A stretch of DNA of 64,000 nucleotides, taken from positions 310,001 through 374,000 of the forward strand of contig BAAIJX010000006.1 in the NCBI GenBank assembly GCA_054600435.1, written 5' to 3'. Under the pieces are notes generated by a model. The model was given only the letters and a program-made list of their open reading frames with translations. It searched no databases and was not told the DNA's origin. Positions within the stretch are counted from its first letter, which is position 1; each line of letters opens with the position of its first letter. Both the position numbers and the translations under genes were made by a program. This document shows positions 1-51,540 of the stretch, piece by piece. Source of the stretch: Neophaeotheca triangularis. Lineage: Eukaryota.

Positions 1-433
1 CAGCAGGTGTGAAGAGAGTCTTAGCAAAAACAGTCAGAACCCACTTATTCCCACCCTCCTCCTCGCCCCACCCTAAAACCTCCCAGTGGCTCCCCGCAAT
101 TACTAACCACCCCTTTCCCCTCCAATCCCACGAACCTCTTCCATCTCCTACAGCAGCTTTGTCTACACCCTGCACGCTCTGCACTTTCGTGCCCGTGAGA
201 GATTGATACGTCACCAAATCGTCTAAGCGGTCGGTGTTGTCGGCTGGAATAGAGGGGTCCGAGGGCGGAAGCGGCGTGTACGTTATTCGCACGTTTCTCT
301 TGGACTTCCACATTGGAAGGGTAGAGTGCGTTACATGCCAGGTTTCCGCTAGCCAGGGGACGGAGGGGTCGATGTAGGTTGCGGATTGGCTGGCGGGGGA
401 GAAGGTTGGGGGGCGGATTGTGATTTGTGACAT
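1..433 (-). CDS. Conserved fungal calycin/lipocalin-like hypothetical protein, 3' end outside the window
   Basis: Absent from the ORF track because there is no stop in the window. Manual translation from ATG at 433 is open to base 1: MSQITIRPP...WLAETWHVTHSTLPMWKSKRNVRITY...WDWRGKGWLVIAGSHWEVLGWG...FAKTLFTPA. These Trp-rich motifs match a fungal family I recognise; the fold is inferred. Confidence 0.75.
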   Translation of the reverse strand, partial: MSQITIRPPTFSPASQSATYIDPSVPWLAETWHVTHSTLPMWKSKRNVRITYTPLPPSDPSIPADNTDRLDDLVTYQSLTGTKVQSVQGVDKAAVGDGRGSWDWRGKGWLVIAGSHWEVLGWGEEEGGNKWVLTVFAKTLFTPA

Positions 434-41565: not shown

Positions 41566-42795
41566 GGTGTATCGTGTTGGTACTTAGATTGTTCACAATA
41601 CAATAAGCAAATGCAGAGCGACTATGCGTGAGATGACAGCAAAGATTGCGAGGCTGGCGGCATGCTAAATAGAAGTGGCGGCCCGTCCAAGTGGAATGCA
41701 AGGGAAAGGAAAGCTCTCAAATCTTCGGAATGGTAGATATGATTCAAAGATGGTAGTGTAGTCGGGGCTGGCGGGTGTAGAAGAGTGTCTAAATGTCAGC
41801 GAACCAGTGCCCTGTCCTGTGGATGGGGGTGGAGGTCAGCAGGAAGGCGGATGGGGCGACGACAAGCTCCCTGTGGGCCACGCTGATGCTGATGCTGTTG
41901 CTTCTGCTGCTGCTGCTGCTGCTATCATGGTCGTGAGGGCGGATCAGCTGACGGTGATGATGATAAGAAGAGGGATCACGGTCGTCGTCCCAAACACGGC
42001 GGGCGTGCGTCGGCGACGAGTCGTTGTTTGGGATTCATTCGGAAAAGGCTGATGATCCATGTTCGTTGACTTGGCAAGGTCTTGGGTTCCAAGGTTCAAG
42101 GAGGTGTGTGTATCCAAAGCGGAAGACGAGGAGAGTGGAGAGTTCAGGTTGATTGACGCGTGTGGGGGAAGACATGGAAGGGCTAGAACCGGACCGGACT
42201 GGAGTCTCTTATCTCCATATATCTGAACATGGCTTGATTTACATACCTCATACCTCCCGTCCTAAATAATAGTCTTGAATACATAGTATCTTACTGTAGG
42301 TACGCCAACACACCGCCACCCGACCATCAGTATCATCTCAGTCCTTGTGCATCATCCGCTAAACTAATAAACTGTACACATGATGCGCACTACTAGTACT
42401 GTACAGTACGTTATCTCCACATGATACCCTATCCTCTGTACTGTCTGTACCTTATCGTGATATGACTTACCGCCTGTCGCGCCCTTGCCGCCAGTCGTAT
42501 AGTGTATACCCATCTCTCTAAGCATCGTCTACTAGTACATGTGGGTCCGACTCCACGAAACTCCAAGTCGAAGCGTCAAGCAAAACTCCCGACCACACCC
42601 CGATGCAACACGCTACATCTGCATCACCCACTTCCTAGTCAAACCCGAGCACCAAGTATCAAACCTGCCATCGAGTCAACCTTGAAACCAACAAACCCGC
42701 CACACTAAACCAAACCAACCATGCAAAAGCCGTAAACCACAAACTCCAACCCCAACCCCCAACCCCCACCCTCCCCCCCTCCAATCTCCCTAACA

Positions 42796-43938
42796 ATGCA
42801 CTCCATCCCCCCACCCCACCCAAACCTTCCCGCAAACCCCCCTCCCGCCCTCCCAACCCTAGCAACCCTAACCACGCACCTCCAAACCCACCTCCCCTGG
42901 CCCCCTCATCCCCGCGAAGTCCCCTACAACTACCACACCCCCCGTCCCCCGCTCCCCCCCTCAACCCCCATCCCCAAACTCCTCCTCAGCCTCACCCCGA
43001 CCCGGACCCTCTACAAAACCCCCCAAACCACTCGATCTCCAACTCTGATCTTCCTCCACCGCCCCTGGACCCTCGACCGCAAAGCCCTTCCCCAAGCCAC
43101 CACGGTCCTGGCCAGCCACAAAGGCTTCGACGAGCTCTTGACCGTCGGCTGGAATCTCGCGCTCGCTGGGAAGCTAGGAGTGGGAGTTGGGGACGGGGGC
43201 GAGGGGCTTGAGAGCGGTGAAGGGGTGATGGCCGGGAGGGCGGTTTGCGTGAGGGGCTACAAGGGGGAAGCGGGGAGGAGGGTTGGGCTTGTGGGGTTGT
43301 TGGAGGGGGGGAGGGGGGTCGTTGCGCGAGAGGTGCTGGAGAGGGTGAGGGGGGAGTTTGGGGCGTTGGAGGGGGTTTGGGGGTTTGGGCCGCTGGAGGG
43401 GGCTTGGGGGTTTGAGGGTGAGGGACTGGGTTTAGGAGACGATGGGCGTGAGGGTGGCGTGCCGTTGCCTGGTACTGCGTTTCAAGATCACGGCGGCGGG
43501 GCCGACGACCTTGTCAAGGTAGTCGCGGTTATGAACGCTTTTCGCCTCGAAGAGGTCGAGCGGGTTGCTGCCGCCGCTCGCCAGCTTCAAACTCTCGCCA
43601 CTCCTTCGGAGGTATCGTCCGAGGTCAAGTGCACCGAGGTTCTCTACCTCACTGGCGCCGTCCGCGAGCCGGGTTTGGAGGCCGCTCGTGCTAAGGGTAT
43701 GCGCGTTATATGTGTCGGTCATCGGGCGTGCGAGGAATGGGGGATTCGGTATCTAGCGGAGGTGGCTAGGAGGGAGTTTCCTTTGTTGGACGTTGAGGTG
43801 CTTCTTGAGGAGGAGGAGGAGGAGGAACTGAGAGCTAAAGCGGTTAAAGTGCAGGGGGAGAATGCTGGTGATGGGCGGGGATCGAAGAGGAAGGTGGCGA
43901 CGTCCCGAGGCGACGGTGTTGCTGGCGCTGGTATCTGA
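42796..43938 (+). CDS. NIF3/NGG1-interacting-factor-like protein, divergent fungal form
   Basis: FLHRPWTLDR, ASHKGFDELLTVGWN, YLTGAVRE and VGHRACEEWG correspond to NIF3-type metal-binding His/Glu motifs. Confidence 0.72.
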   Translation: MHSIPPPHPNLPANPPPALPTLATLTTHLQTHLPWPPHPREVPYNYHTPRPPLPPSTPIPKLLLSLTPTRTLYKTPQTTRSPTLIFLHRPWTLDRKALPQATTVLASHKGFDELLTVGWNLALAGKLGVGVGDGGEGLESGEGVMAGRAVCVRGYKGEAGRRVGLVGLLEGGRGVVAREVLERVRGEFGALEGVWGFGPLEGAWGFEGEGLGLGDDGREGGVPLPGTAFQDHGGGADDLVKVVAVMNAFRLEEVERVAAAARQLQTLATPSEVSSEVKCTEVLYLTGAVREPGLEAARAKGMRVICVGHRACEEWGIRYLAEVARREFPLLDVEVLLEEEEEEELRAKAVKVQGENAGDGRGSKRKVATSRGDGVAGAGI

Positions 43939-44322
43939 GTTCGAGGGGAAGTGCTGCTCGACTGATAAATTCAACTGGCTTCTATTTCATGTATGCCGAT
44001 TGCGAAAGAAAAGTGGCCATGATAGTAAGCTGTAGCGGCGTGTGCTACTCCTTCCAAGCATGTCAATTGGATCAAGCCACCCAATCGGCCTATTAATCTG
44101 TCTACTGAGGTTTGTACGGAAGCAGCCAGAACAGTCAGGTAGTGAGTCGTACGACAAGGAAGAAACAAGCACAAAAGTTGGCAGAGAATTTGTCAATTGT
44201 GGTGCTACGTAAAAACGTTGCACCTAATGACTATCTACTGCGAATTTCGCACAAAAACAGTTGGTATCGCCCTCCATCGAACTCCTCCACAACGATGTCC
44301 ACCCAGCTACATAAGCAAGCAA

Positions 44323-45885
44323 TCACTTCTGGTGAACAGCAGAGCTGTTACCATTAGTGGCATTGCGAGCAGCATTGGCGGCATCGATGTCGAAACCGCA
44401 AGAAGATTCCGCAGCACCGCAAAAGCCGAAAGAGTCGGGAAGTCCACCTCCCCCTCTAACAGGCTTGGGCGCAGGTGGTGGGGTGAAGACAGCGGGAGAC
44501 CTTCTAGTGGTTCGACCTAGAACTGAAAGAAGTTGAGCTAGCTGTGGATTAGGATTGCGTTTGCTAAGAGCAACATACGTCGAAGTCACGAAGGTCGTGG
44601 CCGTAGGAGTCGTAGCAGCGATGGTGCGGACAATGCCTTCACCCTCGCCGTCGATGCCGGCGCAGGAAGCACCCTTGGCGCCTGGTAGAAGGAGGTTAGC
44701 ATGACGTTTGATCGAATGGTAGAGTGAGGTTGGTGACGTACCGCAGAAGCCGAATGTCGCGACCTGGTCCGCCTCCTTCTTGTCGAGGGGCTTGGGAACA
44801 GCAGCGGTCTGGACGGGGCGTTTGGCGTCGGAGTTGTCGATGCCAGCACCAACGCCGGCGCCGGCGCAGGAGGCACCTGGGGCACCTGTGTTGGATGACG
44901 TTAGAGAGAAGTCTTTGTCTGTGGTAGAGGATGGGTACGTACCGCAGAAGCCGAAACGAGGAGGGAGGGCAGAGCGTGCCTCAGTCAAAGAACGACGGCA
45001 ACGAGCGTCGGTCCAGGCCTTGGTGAAACGGGCGCACCAGCCGTACTGGGGTACAGCGTCGGCGGATCGTTTATCGTTGGCGGACAGGCGGCAACGAGTG
45101 TCGGTCCACGCCCTGGAGAAGCGAGCGCACCAGCCGTATTGAGGTACAGCCTCAGCGGAGCGTGCGTCGATGGACCTGCGGCAACGAGAGTCGGTCCAGG
45201 CCTTGGTGAAGCGGGCGCACCAGCCTTCACCAAACTGAGCCTTGGCCTCAGGAGAGCGCTTGTCGACGACATCCGGGAAAGAGACAGGAGAGCGCTTGAA
45301 GGCCGCAGCTACGTCCTTGGCTTCGAAAAGGGCCTCGGGCTCGGAAACCGGGAGGCAATTCTCGCCAGTCTCGTAGCACTGGTCGGCGCCATCCATGACA
45401 CGGCGGGCGACGAGTGCGGACGTGGTGGCGATGTCCTGGTCGAGTTCGGTGGAACGCTCGCCCTCAAAGGTAGCGGCATGGTCTTCACAAGCCATCTCCG
45501 CATCAAGAGGGGTACGATCACCGGCAAGACCACAGACCTCGTCGAGGCAAGTGGTCAAGAGCTGGTAAAAGTCAGTACAGCTCTTCTGTTGTGAAGTGAG
45601 GTGAAGGAAAGCTACTTACAGAGTAGACCTGAGGGTCTGGGCAGATACAGGCCTTAGTGAGGCCACAGTTGGCGACGTCGCCAACCGTGGTCCAGCAGTG
45701 CTCGACACAGCCTGGCAAGAAAGTTAGTAAGAATGGTTGAGGAGAAGAGGTGAGGTGAGGTGAGGTTATTGCTTACTTGCGACAGCCATGTCGGTGGTGC
45801 TGGCCGCCACACCTGTGAAGGTGGTGACGGCAAGGAGCTGCAACATGGCAAGCATGTGCAACGCCTTGGAGGTGAAGCCCATCAT
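44323..45885 (-). CDS. Secreted CFEM-domain, Kex2-processed repeat peptide precursor (alpha-pheromone-precursor-like polyprotein)
   Basis: Signal peptide MMGFTSKALHMLAMLQLLAVTTFTGVAA; introns 45712-45776, 45562-45619, 44886-44942 and 44682-44741, all GT..CT(A/G)AC..AG. 8-Cys module C-x3-C-x9-C-x5-C-x-C-x12-C-x4-C-x15-C; KR/RR sites followed by X-A/X-P dipeptides; two peptide repeat families. Confidence 0.8.
44990..45261 (-). repeat. Three coding tandem repeats of about 93 bp (GWCARFxxAWTDxRC peptides)
   Basis: Near-identical units such as GGCTGGTGCGCCCGCTTCACCAAGGCCTGGACCGAC on the minus strand. Confidence 0.92.
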
Positions 45886-46474
45886 GGCGCTGATGGTGGA
45901 CTTGGTAGTGTTGGTAATCGGTTGGTATACTAGTGAAGGGTGTTGACAATAGTATGGGCGAAGGAGAGAGTATTGTGTCGTTCGTATTGTCGAAGAGGAA
46001 GAAAGGAAGAGGAACAAAGTTGGAGGGGCGGCCAAAGTTATAGTTGTGAGATTAGGGCGCTCGGACCTGGTTGCGCTGTCATGCAGCCAAGGCTGAGGGC
46101 AGGAAGGTACGGTTAGATGAGGCAGGAGCGGGCCTTGGTGCAGACGCGGCCTGCGGCGGTGACGTCGGTAGGGATGGGCGACGAGGTAGAGGTGAAGGCA
46201 GTGAAGTGAAGTGAAGTGAGGATCGCAGGAAACCACCATAAAGACTTTCTGGGGAAGATACGAGAGTCAGCTATATACGAACAGACAAACAGTCCTACAA
46301 GCAACTACAGCGTTTAGAGTAAAGCATGGCTGATGAGGTATTCGTGAGAAGCTGCGGTCTTGTCGGTGCCGGCAGGGAGTGACACTATTGCTGGGCTTAC
46401 GCCTTCTATCGATTTTGCCCATTGGCCTACAAAACATGTGCTGCGCGAACGCTTCTCGAAAGCTTTTAGTGGTA

Positions 46475-47434
46475 TCAAAAGAACAGCAAGTCAATCCTCT
46501 TGTCATCCGCAGCACCATATCGTTCCTTGAACTCTGGCTTGCTCAGCAAAGTCAAAAGCGGCACCTGGATCTCCTTCATATCGAGTATGCCACGCTTCTT
46601 CTGGTCAATATGCGAAGCATCCACGACAATTCTCTCCAACTTTGAAGCGGAGAGTGCACCTGGTAACGTCAGCAACCTGTCGTTCGGCCACCAATTATAG
46701 TTGGAACTCACCAGCATCCAGCAAATCGAGCAGCCTCTGCGGAGTTCCAACACCAATTCCCATCCTCGTCTTCTTCGCCATCTCTGTAGCCTCCTTCAGC
46801 TTGATATGCTTGGCAAAAAGCTTCGCCACCATCGACTCCTTAGTCTGGTATTGTCGCAGTGCCCTCGTCAAATCTGCGGCGCGAATGCCCGAAGGGGCTA
46901 TAACAAGCGTGTGCGGATGACCCTTCTCCTCGGCCGCGTGGATGAGTTTCTGCTCTCCTTTCTTTTTGCGACGGGGGCCGGCGAACTTTTGCACAAAGTC
47001 GGCGAGATCCTGCGTAGCTCGGGACTTCTCATAGCGGGAGGTGTTGATGATGGCTTTCTCTAAATTCGAGAAGTTAGAGCAAAGTAATGCGGAAGCACGA
47101 AAGAGGTCCTATAAATACCAGGTATGTACAAATCTTCAATTTCCACCATACTAAGATCCGGCAGGTGTCTTCTCGTTCGCTGGGCGACGTGGTCGGCCAT
47201 CAACTTGCTATCCATGTGCGCGATCGCATGGTTGACTCCTGCCTCCACATCCAGTGCCTCATCATCAATATCCTTTGGCTTCTTCGTCTGTTTCTGCTTC
47301 TTCGCAGCTCTTTTGCTCGTTGGCTTCGAATCGTCTTCCCGCTTTCGCTTGGTGGATGTCGTTTCCGGGGAAGGAGATGGGGAGATTTTCTCGATCAGCG
47401 GAACACCGCCTTGCCCGTCTTCTGACTCGGACAT
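46475..47434 (-). CDS. CMS1: Cms1 family 90S pre-ribosome-associated protein
   Basis: GVNHAIAHMD, GHPHTLVIAPSGIRAADLTRAL, AKLFAKHIKL, GVGTPQRL and RIVVDASHIDQKKRGILDM; two introns (about 47060-47118 and 46660-46711). Confidence 0.9.
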
Positions 47435-47671
47435 GTTTGAATATCGCACGAAATGCAAATTGGATGAATTCGTAGTTGGCTGTAAGTTATGTGAGGTAGC
47501 AAAAGTTCACTTCCAGATCTTAGCGCCGATTTATGCGCTCCAATGAGATTGTGCAGAAGTCGGAGGTCTGACTTGCATGAGCGTCTTGGCGACATCATCT
47601 TCCGAACAGGTCGAGCATACGAGCAGACAGTGCATACTACCAACTTCAATTTATCGCCATTGACCAGCATC

Positions 47672-48709
47672 ATGGAACGCACATATCAAGCCGCCAGAGC
47701 GTTTGCTCGACCTAGGTCGACAACACAAACAGCCTCAAACCCGCAATGGACCTGCTCTCGTTGCCTCCACCTCCAACGGCAATCCCGCCAAACACTCCAC
47801 CAAAGACGGCAGCCCAACATCCTCTCCCAAACTTCCCGCCGCCACGCCTCCGACCAACCCGGAGACGCCTCAGGTTTCCGCAGCATTGTCGATAACCCCC
47901 CTACTCCCCTCCGCGCAAACCGCAAACACAACAAACTCGGCTTAGCAATACTAGCAGCAATACCCATAACCTCCTTCTTCCTCGGATGCTGGCAAGTCCA
48001 ACGTCTAGGCTGGAAGACCGACCTCATAGCCCGGTTCGAAGACAGACTGATACGGGACCCTCTCCCCCTGCCACCACAAATCGACCCCACGGCCGTTGGC
48101 GAGTTCGACTACCGCCGAGTCTACGCCAGAGGGATCCTTCGACACGACCAAGAGATGCTCATCGGACCACGCTTACACGACGGCAAAGATGGATACCTAG
48201 TCATCACACCCCTAGACCGCAGCGCCGAGTACCCCGACTTCCCGAAAAGCGAAGCAACCGTGCTCGTCAACCGCGGCTGGATCTCTAAAGAAAAAGCCGC
48301 GCAATCTGCTCGCCCGACCAGCTTACCCACAGGTCCAGTGACGGTGCAAGGTCTCCTTCGCTCGCCGTGGAAGAAGAACATGTTCACGCCTTCCAACTCT
48401 CCGCAACAGAACATCTGGCATTTCCCCGACGTCTACGAAATGGCGGCGCATACGGGCTCGCAGCCTGTGTGGATCGAAGCTACAATGCCTCCAGATCTGT
48501 TGACGGCGTATGACCGCGAGTCAAAGGGGTTACCGATTGGGAGGCCTGCGGAGGTCAATTTGCGGAACAATCATGCGCAGTACATTGCTACGTGGTTTGC
48601 GCTTTCGGCTGCGACGACGGTCATGATGTGGATGATTCTGCGGCAGCCGAGGAGTGGGACGCAGGGTTTGAGGGCTGGTGGCAGGGCTAGGCGGAGTAGG
48701 GAGTGGTAG
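47672..48709 (+). CDS. SHY1: SURF1/Shy1 cytochrome c oxidase assembly factor
   Basis: Arg/Ser/Gln-rich mitochondrial presequence; FLGCWQVQRLGWK, FDYRRV, GYLVITPL, VLVNRGWI and NLRNNHAQYIATWF. Confidence 0.92.
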   Translation: MERTYQAARAFARPRSTTQTASNPQWTCSRCLHLQRQSRQTLHQRRQPNILSQTSRRHASDQPGDASGFRSIVDNPPTPLRANRKHNKLGLAILAAIPITSFFLGCWQVQRLGWKTDLIARFEDRLIRDPLPLPPQIDPTAVGEFDYRRVYARGILRHDQEMLIGPRLHDGKDGYLVITPLDRSAEYPDFPKSEATVLVNRGWISKEKAAQSARPTSLPTGPVTVQGLLRSPWKKNMFTPSNSPQQNIWHFPDVYEMAAHTGSQPVWIEATMPPDLLTAYDRESKGLPIGRPAEVNLRNNHAQYIATWFALSAATTVMMWMILRQPRSGTQGLRAGGRARRSREW

Positions 48710-49349: not shown

Positions 49350-50945
49350 TCAACCTCGCTTGTCTTTCTTATCCTCATCCCTACTCTCAAAATCTAAAGA
49401 ATTCCCATTGTAAAACTCAGCCTCACCCTTCTTGGCAGCTTCCGCCCTCTGATCCGCAAGCGTCTTAACCCTCACCTTCCCCTTGGGCGCCGACTCTTCC
49501 TCTGCCATAGCCGCGCCCTCAGCATTACTATCATCCCTCTCATCCCCCGTGCCACCAATATAAGGCCCCGAGCCCTCCGTCGCACCCGCACCCTCCCCAC
49601 CACGCCCATAACCCGTCACAGCCCCGAACACCGAAGAAGCCAGCTCCCAAACCCCACCCACCAGCCCCGTCCCCGCCCCTAGCGCTCTCGAAACCACACC
49701 CTCGCCCCCTGCTCCCGCGTACGCTTCCGTGTACCCCGCCACCGGCACCAACACCAACGTCGCCGACGGACACAAGCCCAGCTCCAGCAAGCTGCGGTGT
49801 TCGTCGCTCATCTCGATACTGCGGGAAGGCTGGGGAGCGAGAATCTGTCTGAAAGTAAAAGGGATTTCGGCGACATTGCCGGCTTCGGGAGGGGCTTGGG
49901 CGGAGATGTGGGCGCGGACGCTCGAGGCGAGGGTGTCTGTGGGTGAGAAGCGGGATTTGAGGGAGGAGCCGTCGAAGAGGCGGATTTGGAGGGCGCAGAC
50001 GCTGCCGAGGCCGCGGGTTGAGGGACGGGAGGGGCGGGAGAAGGGGCCTTGAGGGCTGGTTGGGTTCGAGGCGGCGGTAGTGTTTGTGGGGGTTTCGGCG
50101 CTTTCTTTGCGCGCTTGTTCGCGGGCGCGCCGGGTGAGTTTGTCGTTTTCGATTTGGGCTAGGATGCGTTCGCGTTCGGATTTGGCTTCGTCGTTGCGTT
50201 TCTTTTGTTGCCGGATCCAGTCAGTGCGGGCTTTGGCGCGGTCGGGGGGGTTTGAGGAGGAGGCGGGTTGTTTGCCTTTGCCTTTTTCGGTGGGTGTGGA
50301 GGTGGATGTTGCTAGGGCTTCTTGTTCTTCTTTCTGCCGCCGCTTTGTGCGTTCTTTTCGCTCTGCTGCTTCCGCTTCTAATCGTTTTTGGCGCTCGGCT
50401 TCGAGTCGTTGGGCGCGGTCTGGGAACATTGATTGCAGATTGCAGGACTGGTCTTGAGATGTGGGTGTAGATGTGTTCGCTTGAATTGATGGTGATACTG
50501 CTGCGCCCCCTAATGGATCTTGGCTGACGGCGATGTTGGCTTGAGAGTCTGACAGTATCTCCCCTTGTCCTTCCAAAGTACTCTCAGCATCCGCCCCAAG
50601 ACCCACAGCATTCAACAGCCGCTCCCTGAATTCATCCTCCCCTGTGTTGCGCTCCAGTTGCGCCAGTATCTGTCCATTCCTGATAATCACCAACGTCGGT
50701 GCGGCACTGATGGAACAGAAAGCCGAGAGGAACCCGGCCTCTTGAGAGCCAAACTCGATCCGTAGCAACACGGCCTTGTCTTTGATCATGTCTCCCAGCC
50801 CACCTTCCACAAGCCACTGCTCTTCCCAGAGCTTTGAGGTCTCATCGTCCTCCTGACGGACGAAGCAGGCTACGAGCTTCTGCTGCTGAATGGCTAGAGC
50901 GATGCCTGATTGGAGGTCACCGGGGTGGAAGATGGAATCAGACAT
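49350..50945 (-). CDS. UBX-domain Cdc48/p97 cofactor (Ubx7/UBXN4-like)
   Basis: N-terminal thioredoxin-like region (GSQEAGFLSAFC...PTLVII), coiled coil, UBX (LQIRLFDGSSL...LGLCPSATLVL) and C-terminal FYNGNSLDFE. Confidence 0.88.
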   Translation of the reverse strand: MSDSIFHPGDLQSGIALAIQQQKLVACFVRQEDDETSKLWEEQWLVEGGLGDMIKDKAVLLRIEFGSQEAGFLSAFCSISAAPTLVIIRNGQILAQLERNTGEDEFRERLLNAVGLGADAESTLEGQGEILSDSQANIAVSQDPLGGAAVSPSIQANTSTPTSQDQSCNLQSMFPDRAQRLEAERQKRLEAEAAERKERTKRRQKEEQEALATSTSTPTEKGKGKQPASSSNPPDRAKARTDWIRQQKKRNDEAKSERERILAQIENDKLTRRAREQARKESAETPTNTTAASNPTSPQGPFSRPSRPSTRGLGSVCALQIRLFDGSSLKSRFSPTDTLASSVRAHISAQAPPEAGNVAEIPFTFRQILAPQPSRSIEMSDEHRSLLELGLCPSATLVLVPVAGYTEAYAGAGGEGVVSRALGAGTGLVGGVWELASSVFGAVTGYGRGGEGAGATEGSGPYIGGTGDERDDSNAEGAAMAEEESAPKGKVRVKTLADQRAEAAKKGEAEFYNGNSLDFESRDEDKKDKRG

Positions 50946-51540
50946 GCTTGTCGCGGGTGTCAAGTTAGTTTGATATTGATTGAAAGACGTTCACGGGTAC
51001 GTACGCGATCTCATCAGTCAGCACCACCTTGACCACCTTAGCTTAGGTTCACATGTTGCTGTATCCGTCCCAATGCGGTCTAGTCGGTGTCTAAGGACCC
51101 TGGCTGGAAATGAAAATAGAATAACGGAACCCACCTGCAGCATAACTTAGGTAAGGTTATTATTACATCAGACACGTAACTTACGGTATTAAGGTACCTC
51201 AGGTGGTCGCAGTATTCTTGTCACAATCTCTACACGGCTCACATCATACCTACATAAGTACATTAGAACACAGGCAAAAAAAAAGAAAATCACTCGCATC
51301 CAAGAGACAGACTCTGAAGCGTTCAAGTTCATGTTCGAGAGACCCCCCGACGTAAGGTATCGTCAGCCAACGAAGCATCATCATCGTCGCCACGATCAAG
51401 ACACCCGGACAGCTGACGACAGCCCCGTCGGCTTAGCTCTTAGCATACGACACGAACAAACATTTATCGACAAGATCCATTGTCTATCCGCGTGTCCAAG
51501 GAGAGTCACTACTACTGTCTTGCTCTTTGTTTGCCTACAT

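Follow-up and report, generated by a model that had tools for sequence, protein, structure and literature searches.

Described precursors of secreted fungal peptides

Several kinds of secreted fungal protein resemble the product of g6847, a gene of Neophaeotheca triangularis on the minus strand of a 64,000-nucleotide stretch of contig BAAIJX010000006.1 (positions 310,001 to 374,000 of the forward strand, assembly GCA_054600435.1; hereafter the window). Judged from its sequence, this product appears to be a pre-pro-polyprotein in which the core of the alpha-factor-like pheromone of the same species stands beside a second family of disulfide-loop peptides and an N-terminal module with a CFEM-like cysteine pattern. 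The alpha-factor is matured through Kex2, Ste13 and Kex1 steps, Kex2 preferring Lys or Arg at P2, and Ece1/candidalysin is another multi-product precursor.

The Kex2-processed repeat proteins (KEPs) are defined, in the available text of Le Marquer 2019 (PMC6339444), by a signal peptide, the lack of a transmembrane (TM) segment, and at least four KR/RR fragments of which at least three share a motif. In the same text 79 of 1193 KEPs carry two or three repeat types, and Table S2 of Umemura 2020 (PMC7329392), as far as it was accessible, gives nine of 7878 KEPs a CFEM profile, for example Dothistroma EME38747.1. KEPs share with g6847 the leader, the absence of a TM segment, the KR/RR fragments and the repeats, and both multi-type and CFEM-bearing members are thus already catalogued. 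In the accessible parts of these two sources (PMC6339444, PMC7329392), no member is described in which CFEM, a pheromone core and a second disulfide peptide occur together. Cut in silico at KR/RR sites, the g6847 product itself gives 10 fragments, three with W-C-x11-C and three with F-C-x6-C (one of them C-terminal), and so falls within the operational definition, with leader and TM segments judged by hydropathy only.

Two-cysteine pheromone precursors of the PPG1/CCG-4 type have, in the portion of PMC6339444 available, a signal peptide, a C-x2-[PK]-G-x2-C core, KR sites and X-A/X-P dipeptides, all of which recur in g6847. In contrast to them, g6847 has neither the ECFxEGxEC module nor the C-terminal module of these precursors, its cores are split by introns and have no close KR, and it adds the CFEM-like module and a second repeat type. 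VdTRP of Verticillium dahliae is similar in another respect, since it has a signal peptide, a non-canonical CFEM-like module with six cysteines that is missed by Pfam-type searches, and tandem two-cysteine repeats, four in number and 14 aa long, the two parts being required together (PMC11584738). It differs in its length of 196 aa, in its single repeat type and in acting on plant membranes as a whole protein, and the text searched (PMC11584738) makes no mention of Kex2 and reports no such processing. No sequence relation between VdTRP and g6847 emerged from the searches for relatives of the g6847 product. In Ustilago maydis, Hum3 links a folded Cys-rich extracellular domain, a hydrophobin, to repeats with Kex2 motifs between them, and Rep1 is processed into peptides; according to the part of PMC4617103 seen, these basidiomycete proteins differ from g6847 in having amphipathic repeats of 31-55 aa without Cys loops, a C-terminal domain and no relation to pheromones. 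Pro-opiomelanocortin, an analogy named in the accessible text of Umemura 2020 (PMC7329392), likewise holds several different peptides between the dibasic sites of one precursor, without homology.

The initial annotation of the locus took the architecture to be undescribed, which is overstated in view of the multi-type KEPs, the CFEM-bearing KEPs, VdTRP and Hum3. The separate architectural elements have precedents, and it is the link to the pheromone core that is new: searches of the literature gave no precursor in which a CFEM-like module and a second disulfide peptide accompany pheromone cores.

Pheromone cores in g6847

The product of g6847 is deposited at NCBI as a hypothetical protein, MBLNU230_g6847t1 (P0001). 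An exhaustive HMMER search with this sequence among 1.84 billion representatives gave four matches at E <= 0.001, namely P0001 itself, P0002, P0003 and P0004. P0003 (1173 aa, Cys-rich repeats, E 2.3e-7) was set aside as a composition match. P0004 is the product of g6077 in the same genome; after its leader, ..GFCGA[KPR]GASCA.. occurs seven times, with Met before five of the copies and KR after most. Its relatives at E <= 0.01 number 29, not counting P0004, and come from Capnodiales-type fungi, Leotiomycetes and other groups; they are repeat precursors with C-x2-PG-x2-C units between KR sites; the UniRef names among them include 'Pheromone' (one) and 'Clock-controlled pheromone ccg-4' (one). 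Given these repeats and named relatives, and since alpha pheromones of non-Pleosporales Dothideomycetes have two conserved cysteines according to the available text of Le Marquer 2019 (PMC6339444), P0004 is probably the alpha-pheromone precursor of N. triangularis. It is annotated merely as a hypothetical protein. The 13-member P0004 family is without a Pfam family and gives only spurious sub-threshold Pfam matches; besides the repeats, its members share ECFxEGxECH..VKRE and, at the C terminus, EC.AP.G.CT.A.R.LDELE, both of them conserved Cys modules. A likeness seen by eye between QCYETGENC (residues 128-136 of g6847) and the first of these was discarded, its HMM score of -2.7 being reached by 424 of 2000 shuffles.

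Two 11-mers, GFCGAPGASCA and GFCGAKGASCA, are common to g6847 and P0004. BLASTP aligns P0001 with P0004 at E 1e-8, and hhalign matches an alignment of 13 pheromone-family sequences to residues 267-333 of P0001 with a probability of 84.7% and E 6.7e-6. By these comparisons the F-C-x6-C units of g6847 (Cys 273/280, 321/328 and 409/416) correspond to the core of N. triangularis's own alpha-factor-like pheromone. The initial annotation missed this identity, as it did the splitting of the cores by introns 3 and 4. The fragments that hold the cores are long, at 39, 67 and 58 aa. With homology confined to residues 267-333, the other family modules undetectable and no KR close after the cores, the gene is a different precursor that bears pheromone cores rather than an ordinary second pheromone gene.

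Gene structure

Removal of four introns yields a spliced coding sequence of 1323 nt and a product of 440 aa that is identical in every letter to P0001, so that the four-intron model proposed at the outset matches an annotation made independently. Scanning for the intron signals of fungi located GTAAG[CT] or GTACGT donors and CAG acceptors, and in all four introns a CT[AG]A[CT] branch motif lies 14-19 nt from the 3′ end. A fifth intron, at 44578-44523 or 44578-44517, was discarded, as it disrupts the frame. Exon 3 is a single uninterrupted frame, which encodes the three W-C units together with Cys72, Cys77 and Cys92 from the N-terminal module, and neither translation nor hydropathy shows a separate signal peptide for the repeat part; the two halves are therefore not separate genes, barring an internal start.

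Introns 3 and 4 are in frame, have no stop codons in the reading frame and occupy the same spot in the pheromone-like core (FGFC|G), while the third core is intronless. The two shared 11-mers are uninterrupted in P0004 and are formed in g6847 only once introns 3 and 4 are removed, which supports these two splices. Retention of either intron would preserve the frame and add 19-20 residues within the Cys loop. At the DNA level, an 85-nt repeat occurs in three copies (82% and 67% identity to the reference copy), together with two smaller repeat families, and these repeats are not due to chance.

The one public run with any of the stretch, the environmental run X1, labelled metatranscriptomic but probably of DNA, contains a 0.06 share of it and gives a single 268-nt contig over the 3′ end of the gene (44275-44542, depth 2), which crosses no intron. 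At about 98.5% identity, this contig probably derives from a different strain. It differs in coding at E413G and N431D, the first of which gives the third F-C unit back the conserved Gly of the pheromone-type core. On the opposite strand, stop-free frames run at 44905-45594 (+, 229 aa) and 44723-45142 (+, 139 aa). They are probably a by-product of a G+C-rich, repeat-rich coding sequence, and on the contigs of relatives frames like these could lead ORF-based gene callers astray. Short tandem runs of GTGAA/GTGAG-type pentamers occur upstream at 46190-46225 (+) and, as the complement, in intron 1 at 45745-45772.

Table 1. Features of the g6847 locus and its neighbours (positions are those of the window)
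Feature	Residues	Positions	Strand	Remarks
Whole coding region	1-440	45885-44323	minus	5 exons, product 440 aa
Exons		45885-45777, 45711-45620, 45561-44943, 44885-44742, 44681-44323	minus	last exon including stop
Intron 1		45776-45712	minus	65 nt
Intron 2		45619-45562	minus	58 nt
Intron 3		44942-44886	minus	57 nt
Intron 4		44741-44682	minus	60 nt
Predicted signal peptide	1-28	45802-45885	minus	hydropathy; cleavage after ..GVAA (GVAA/S) read by eye
Leader and 8-Cys module fragment	1-121			in-silico cut
CFEM-like 8-Cys module	Cys38-Cys92	45487-45709	minus	spans intron 2; Pfam CFEM sub-threshold, Cys gaps, Atlas clusters
Fragment between RR120 and KR156	122-157	45292-45399	minus	36 aa; C-x6-C pair 129/136
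Single-copy Cys-free peptide	158-169	45256-45291	minus	12 aa, between two KR sites
Three W-C-x11-C units	170-196, 197-232, 233-257	44992-45255	minus	
Fragment with first pheromone-core unit	258-296	44818-44991	minus	FGFCGAPGASCA; core split by intron 3
Fragment with second pheromone-core unit	297-363	44557-44817	minus	FGFCGAKGASCA; core split by intron 4
Single-copy Cys-free peptide	364-382	44500-44556	minus	19 aa; KR, then NP-NP-Q...TT, then RR
C-terminal fragment	383-440	44326-44499	minus	58 aa; third divergent core FGFCGAAESSC; two N-x-S/T sequons
MFS transporter		~39.2-41.6k	minus	Pfam scan
NIF3-like ORF		42736-43938	+	Pfam scan
CMS1 ORF		47060-47506	minus	Pfam scan
SURF1/SHY1		47495-48709	+	Pfam scan
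UBX		49350-50990	minus	Pfam scan

Repeat units and dibasic sites

The protein has one hydrophobic stretch, at residues ~8-28 (Kyte-Doolittle (KD) maximum 1.73 at residues 12-26), and its last 30 residues are hydrophilic, with a mean KD of -0.53 and no hydrophobic, glycosylphosphatidylinositol (GPI)-type or TM end. The 22 cysteines all fall in even, regularly spaced pairs: eight in the N-terminal module (38, 42, 52, 58, 60, 72, 77 and 92), three W-C-x11-C pairs (182/194, 212/224 and 243/255), the three F-C-x6-C pairs and an additional C-x6-C pair at 129/136, which had escaped the initial annotation. Nine KR/RR sites, at 120, 156, 168, 195, 231, 256, 295, 362 and 381, are joined by a KK at 309, and every unit border falls on a KR/RR site save for two AR borders. 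The leader and 8-Cys module, the segments between KR/RR sites with X-A/X-P spacers, the set of three WC-x11-C, three FC-x6-C and two single-copy peptides, and the absence of a GPI or TM tail had all been proposed beforehand, and each was recovered here by hydropathy, the positions of the cysteines or in-silico cutting.

Each W-C unit is framed in the same way, with a basic site (KR, AR and KR in the three units), three X-A/X-P dipeptides, a Gln, the core and then RR, which is RL in the second unit. The dipeptides are SP-EA-KA, SA-EA-VP and SA-DA-VP. An X-A or X-P dipeptide follows directly after five of the nine KR/RR sites in a protein of which Ala and Pro make up 21% of residues (binomial odds ~0.02), and four peptides would begin with Gln once the dipeptides were removed.

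The N-terminal module

CFEM domains have the consensus C-x3-C-x8-12-C-x5-10-C-x-C-x9-14-C-x3-4-C-x15-16-C (Kulkarni 2003, as quoted in the accessible text of a 2026 review, PMC13586796). In the g6847 module the gaps between cysteines are 3, 9, 5, 1, 11, 4 and 14, six of the seven lying within the consensus and the last being short by one; by a crude null, random placement of the cysteines reaches at least six of the seven gaps in about 4-5 of 100,000 trials. The consensus Asp is absent, the interval between Cys52 and Cys58 being G-L-T-K-A, and the consensus Pro two residues before the first cysteine is also absent, position -2 of Cys38 being Ala. In the Candida hemophores haem is liganded by this Asp; since it is missing here, haem binding of that type would not be expected.

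The Pfam CFEM model (PF05730) matches residues 35-80 over positions 5-52 of its 66, with E 0.0041 and 17.6 bits against a gathering cut-off of 22, and single exons searched against Pfam gave no match. The CFEM identity assigned initially is thus supported only in part. In a feature search of the Atlas the two top clusters are CFEM, with scores of 0.79 and 0.76 that are graded leads only. Single-sequence structure models are helical but poor, with a mean pLDDT of 41 for the whole protein and 58 for the domain only; in the whole-protein model, blocks of ten residues have a pLDDT of ~51-81 from 21 to 90, and pLDDT is below 50 for 96-366. With these poor models, three fold searches (two with the whole model, one with the domain model) had no CFEM chain among the matches listed, which settles nothing, and the best scores were Z 5.8 and a Foldseek E of 0.31 for the whole model and E 2.6 for the domain model. 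A sequence search of solved structures with P0001 gave 0 matches at E <= 10. Taken together, the module is a non-canonical CFEM-like domain, and its true kinship with CFEM is likely.

Relatives and sequence constraint

The sole partial relative found in the searches with P0001 is P0002, a 122-aa ORF fragment that aligns to residues 322-440 with 54% identity. It retains the KR and the second dibasic site (RR in P0001, KK in P0002) around the 364-382 peptide, even though the neighbouring residues have changed. The flanks of the last F-C core are also retained, P0002 too has two N-glycosylation sequons in the aligned tail, and this core reads GFCGAKGSSC in P0002, nearer to the pheromone than the GFCGAAESSC of P0001. 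The P0002 ORF starts directly ahead of GAPGASCAG, in sequence that would be read through from an intron, with other residues where FGFC is expected; such a start fits an intron at the same position in the relative.

Beyond this fragment, a search at near length found only P0001 itself among 8000 candidates scored, and one at shorter length only P0002 among 1647 candidates. Two metagenome scans, with 159 and 519 pattern matches, gave no relative, an Atlas search with the W-C region gave no usable match, and tblastn with P0001, P0004 and P0002 found no second copy in the window, with nothing below E 0.02 outside the gene itself. Within the gene, the pairs of W-C cores have nonsynonymous and synonymous proportions (pN/pS) of 0.11/0.21, 0.05/0.26 and 0.10/0.42, pN being below pS in three of three, and the same holds for all three pairs of F-C cores; the counts are small in both sets.

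Proposed processing and alternative explanations

With somewhat better than even confidence, we read g6847 as a lineage-restricted secreted pre-pro-polyprotein of the KEP type that would be cut at most of its dibasic sites. The N-terminal leader would direct the chain to the endoplasmic reticulum, where the 22 cysteines would pair. In the late Golgi a Kex2-type protease would cleave after KR and RR, a Ste13-type aminopeptidase would strip the X-A/X-P dipeptides, and a Kex1-type carboxypeptidase would trim the basic ends. The predicted products are a non-canonical CFEM-like module of about residues 29-119, three cationic, Trp-rich loop peptides of the W-C-x11-C type with Gln as first residue, one linear Gln-led peptide (364-382), and longer fragments each with one copy of the alpha-pheromone core (GFCGA[PK]GASCA). 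The anatomy of the sequence, its identity with the annotated model, the shared pheromone core and the partial conservation in P0002 are observed; secretion, each cleavage, the disulfides and all functions are inferred. As a best guess, the F-C units would serve in extracellular peptide signalling related to the pheromone system, and the W-C units in signalling or antimicrobial action.

A stronger version, in which g6847 is a multi-hormone precursor, seems improbable. It would co-release pheromone-core variants, a Trp-rich disulfide-loop peptide, a linear Gln-led peptide and the CFEM-like module, and at a Ste2-type receptor the core products would be agonists, antagonists or autocrine signals of density outside mating; in such a precursor, cores could be switched on or off by retaining introns 3 and 4, which are in frame.

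Several observations weigh against a processed precursor of the KEP type. The next KR lies 14 and 33 residues past the first two F-C cores and is missing past the third, while in P0004 it comes within a few residues; without a KR close after the cores, a pheromone-sized peptide would not be released. Only one of the four RR sites is followed by X-A/X-P, and two unit borders, before residues 202 and 264, are AR and not KR, so that some cuts may be inefficient or absent. Only residues 267-333 show homology to the pheromone family, and the ECFxEGxEC module of that family is undetectable in P0001 (HMM -2.7, with 424 of 2000 shuffles as high). The W-C unit and the N-terminal half have no relative in any search, a weak point as ORF-based calls on eukaryotic contigs could hide relatives. 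The CFEM match falls below its cut-off, and spurious Pfam matches in repeat-rich relatives reach similar or better E values (5.4e-5 to 5e-3), so that the HMM match alone is weak. The PRE-type/Ste12-type motif TGAAACA does not occur in the 815 nt upstream of the gene and occurs four times in the whole window, which is not decisive for mating-type control. VdTRP, finally, is a precedent in which a CFEM and Cys-repeat protein is able to act uncut, according to the text searched (PMC11584738).

This last point leads to a serious, if unlikely, alternative, in which the g6847 product acts intact or lightly trimmed in the manner of VdTRP, the N-terminal module targeting a surface or ligand, the attached Cys-loop repeats acting there, and the dibasic sites being incidental or partly used. 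Besides the requirement for both parts of VdTRP together, the size of the fragments that hold the F-C cores and the AR borders would suit such a protein, as would the two sequons in the C-terminal fragment and the two in the P0002 tail, which are as in a stable glycoprotein. Yet the W-C units are framed exactly as alpha-factor units are, the dibasic sites around 364-382 have been kept in P0002 while the residues next to them changed, and the repeat region is predicted to be unstructured, although that last point is weak with a poor single-sequence model. It is also possible, but rather doubtful, that the gene is a young chimera, a CFEM-like gene that captured fragments of a pheromone gene and a new repeat and has little or no function, perhaps being weakly expressed or silent. 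The gene is lineage-restricted, one of the four matches being the query, one a paralogue and one probably spurious, with none added by the metagenome scans; its third core has diverged, and introns 3 and 4 keep the frame and contain no stop, as would be expected of recently intronised or duplicated sequence. A functionless chimera does not sit well, however, with the 54% identity kept over the C-terminal 120 residues in P0002, whose ORF is consistent with an intron there too, with pN below pS in six of six core comparisons, or with cysteines that are all regularly paired. That the gene is an annotation artefact, a small CFEM gene and a repeat-peptide precursor gene wrongly merged, is very improbable: support for the gene model is purely ab initio, but the single frame of exon 3 joins the module to the W-C units, and no Met-led hydrophobic leader stands before the repeat part.

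If the protein is processed as a KEP-type precursor, pheromone cores would have been copied from a mating-pheromone gene and rebuilt in another secreted precursor beside unrelated peptides and a folded module, and such rebuilding would be a route for the diversification of fungal peptide signals. If it is not processed, g6847 would be another lineage-specific secreted cysteine-rich repeat protein. The capture of pheromone cores is a real and testable curiosity, based on one genome and one fragment, and it provides concrete peptides that can be synthesised for tests on pheromone receptors and microbes, in the poorly studied extremotolerant black yeasts.

Genomic neighbourhood

The surroundings of g6847 were scanned against Pfam with 15 ORFs chosen from the 53 that lie between 34000 and 56000 and reach 120 aa or more, so that shorter, intron-broken or unchosen ORFs may be missed. 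A ustiloxin-type (dikaritin) precursor of a RiPP, a peptide made on ribosomes and modified after translation, was ruled out, as a DUF3328 (UstYa) or other RiPP-tailoring gene is absent from these 15 ORFs. The families found among them are response regulator, MFS, NIF3, CMS1, SURF1 and UBX, and by these matches the neighbours of the gene are housekeeping genes. The NIF3-like ORF has a long Pro-rich N-terminal stretch, followed by a weak NIF3 (DUF34) match with E 9e-5, just below the cut-off.

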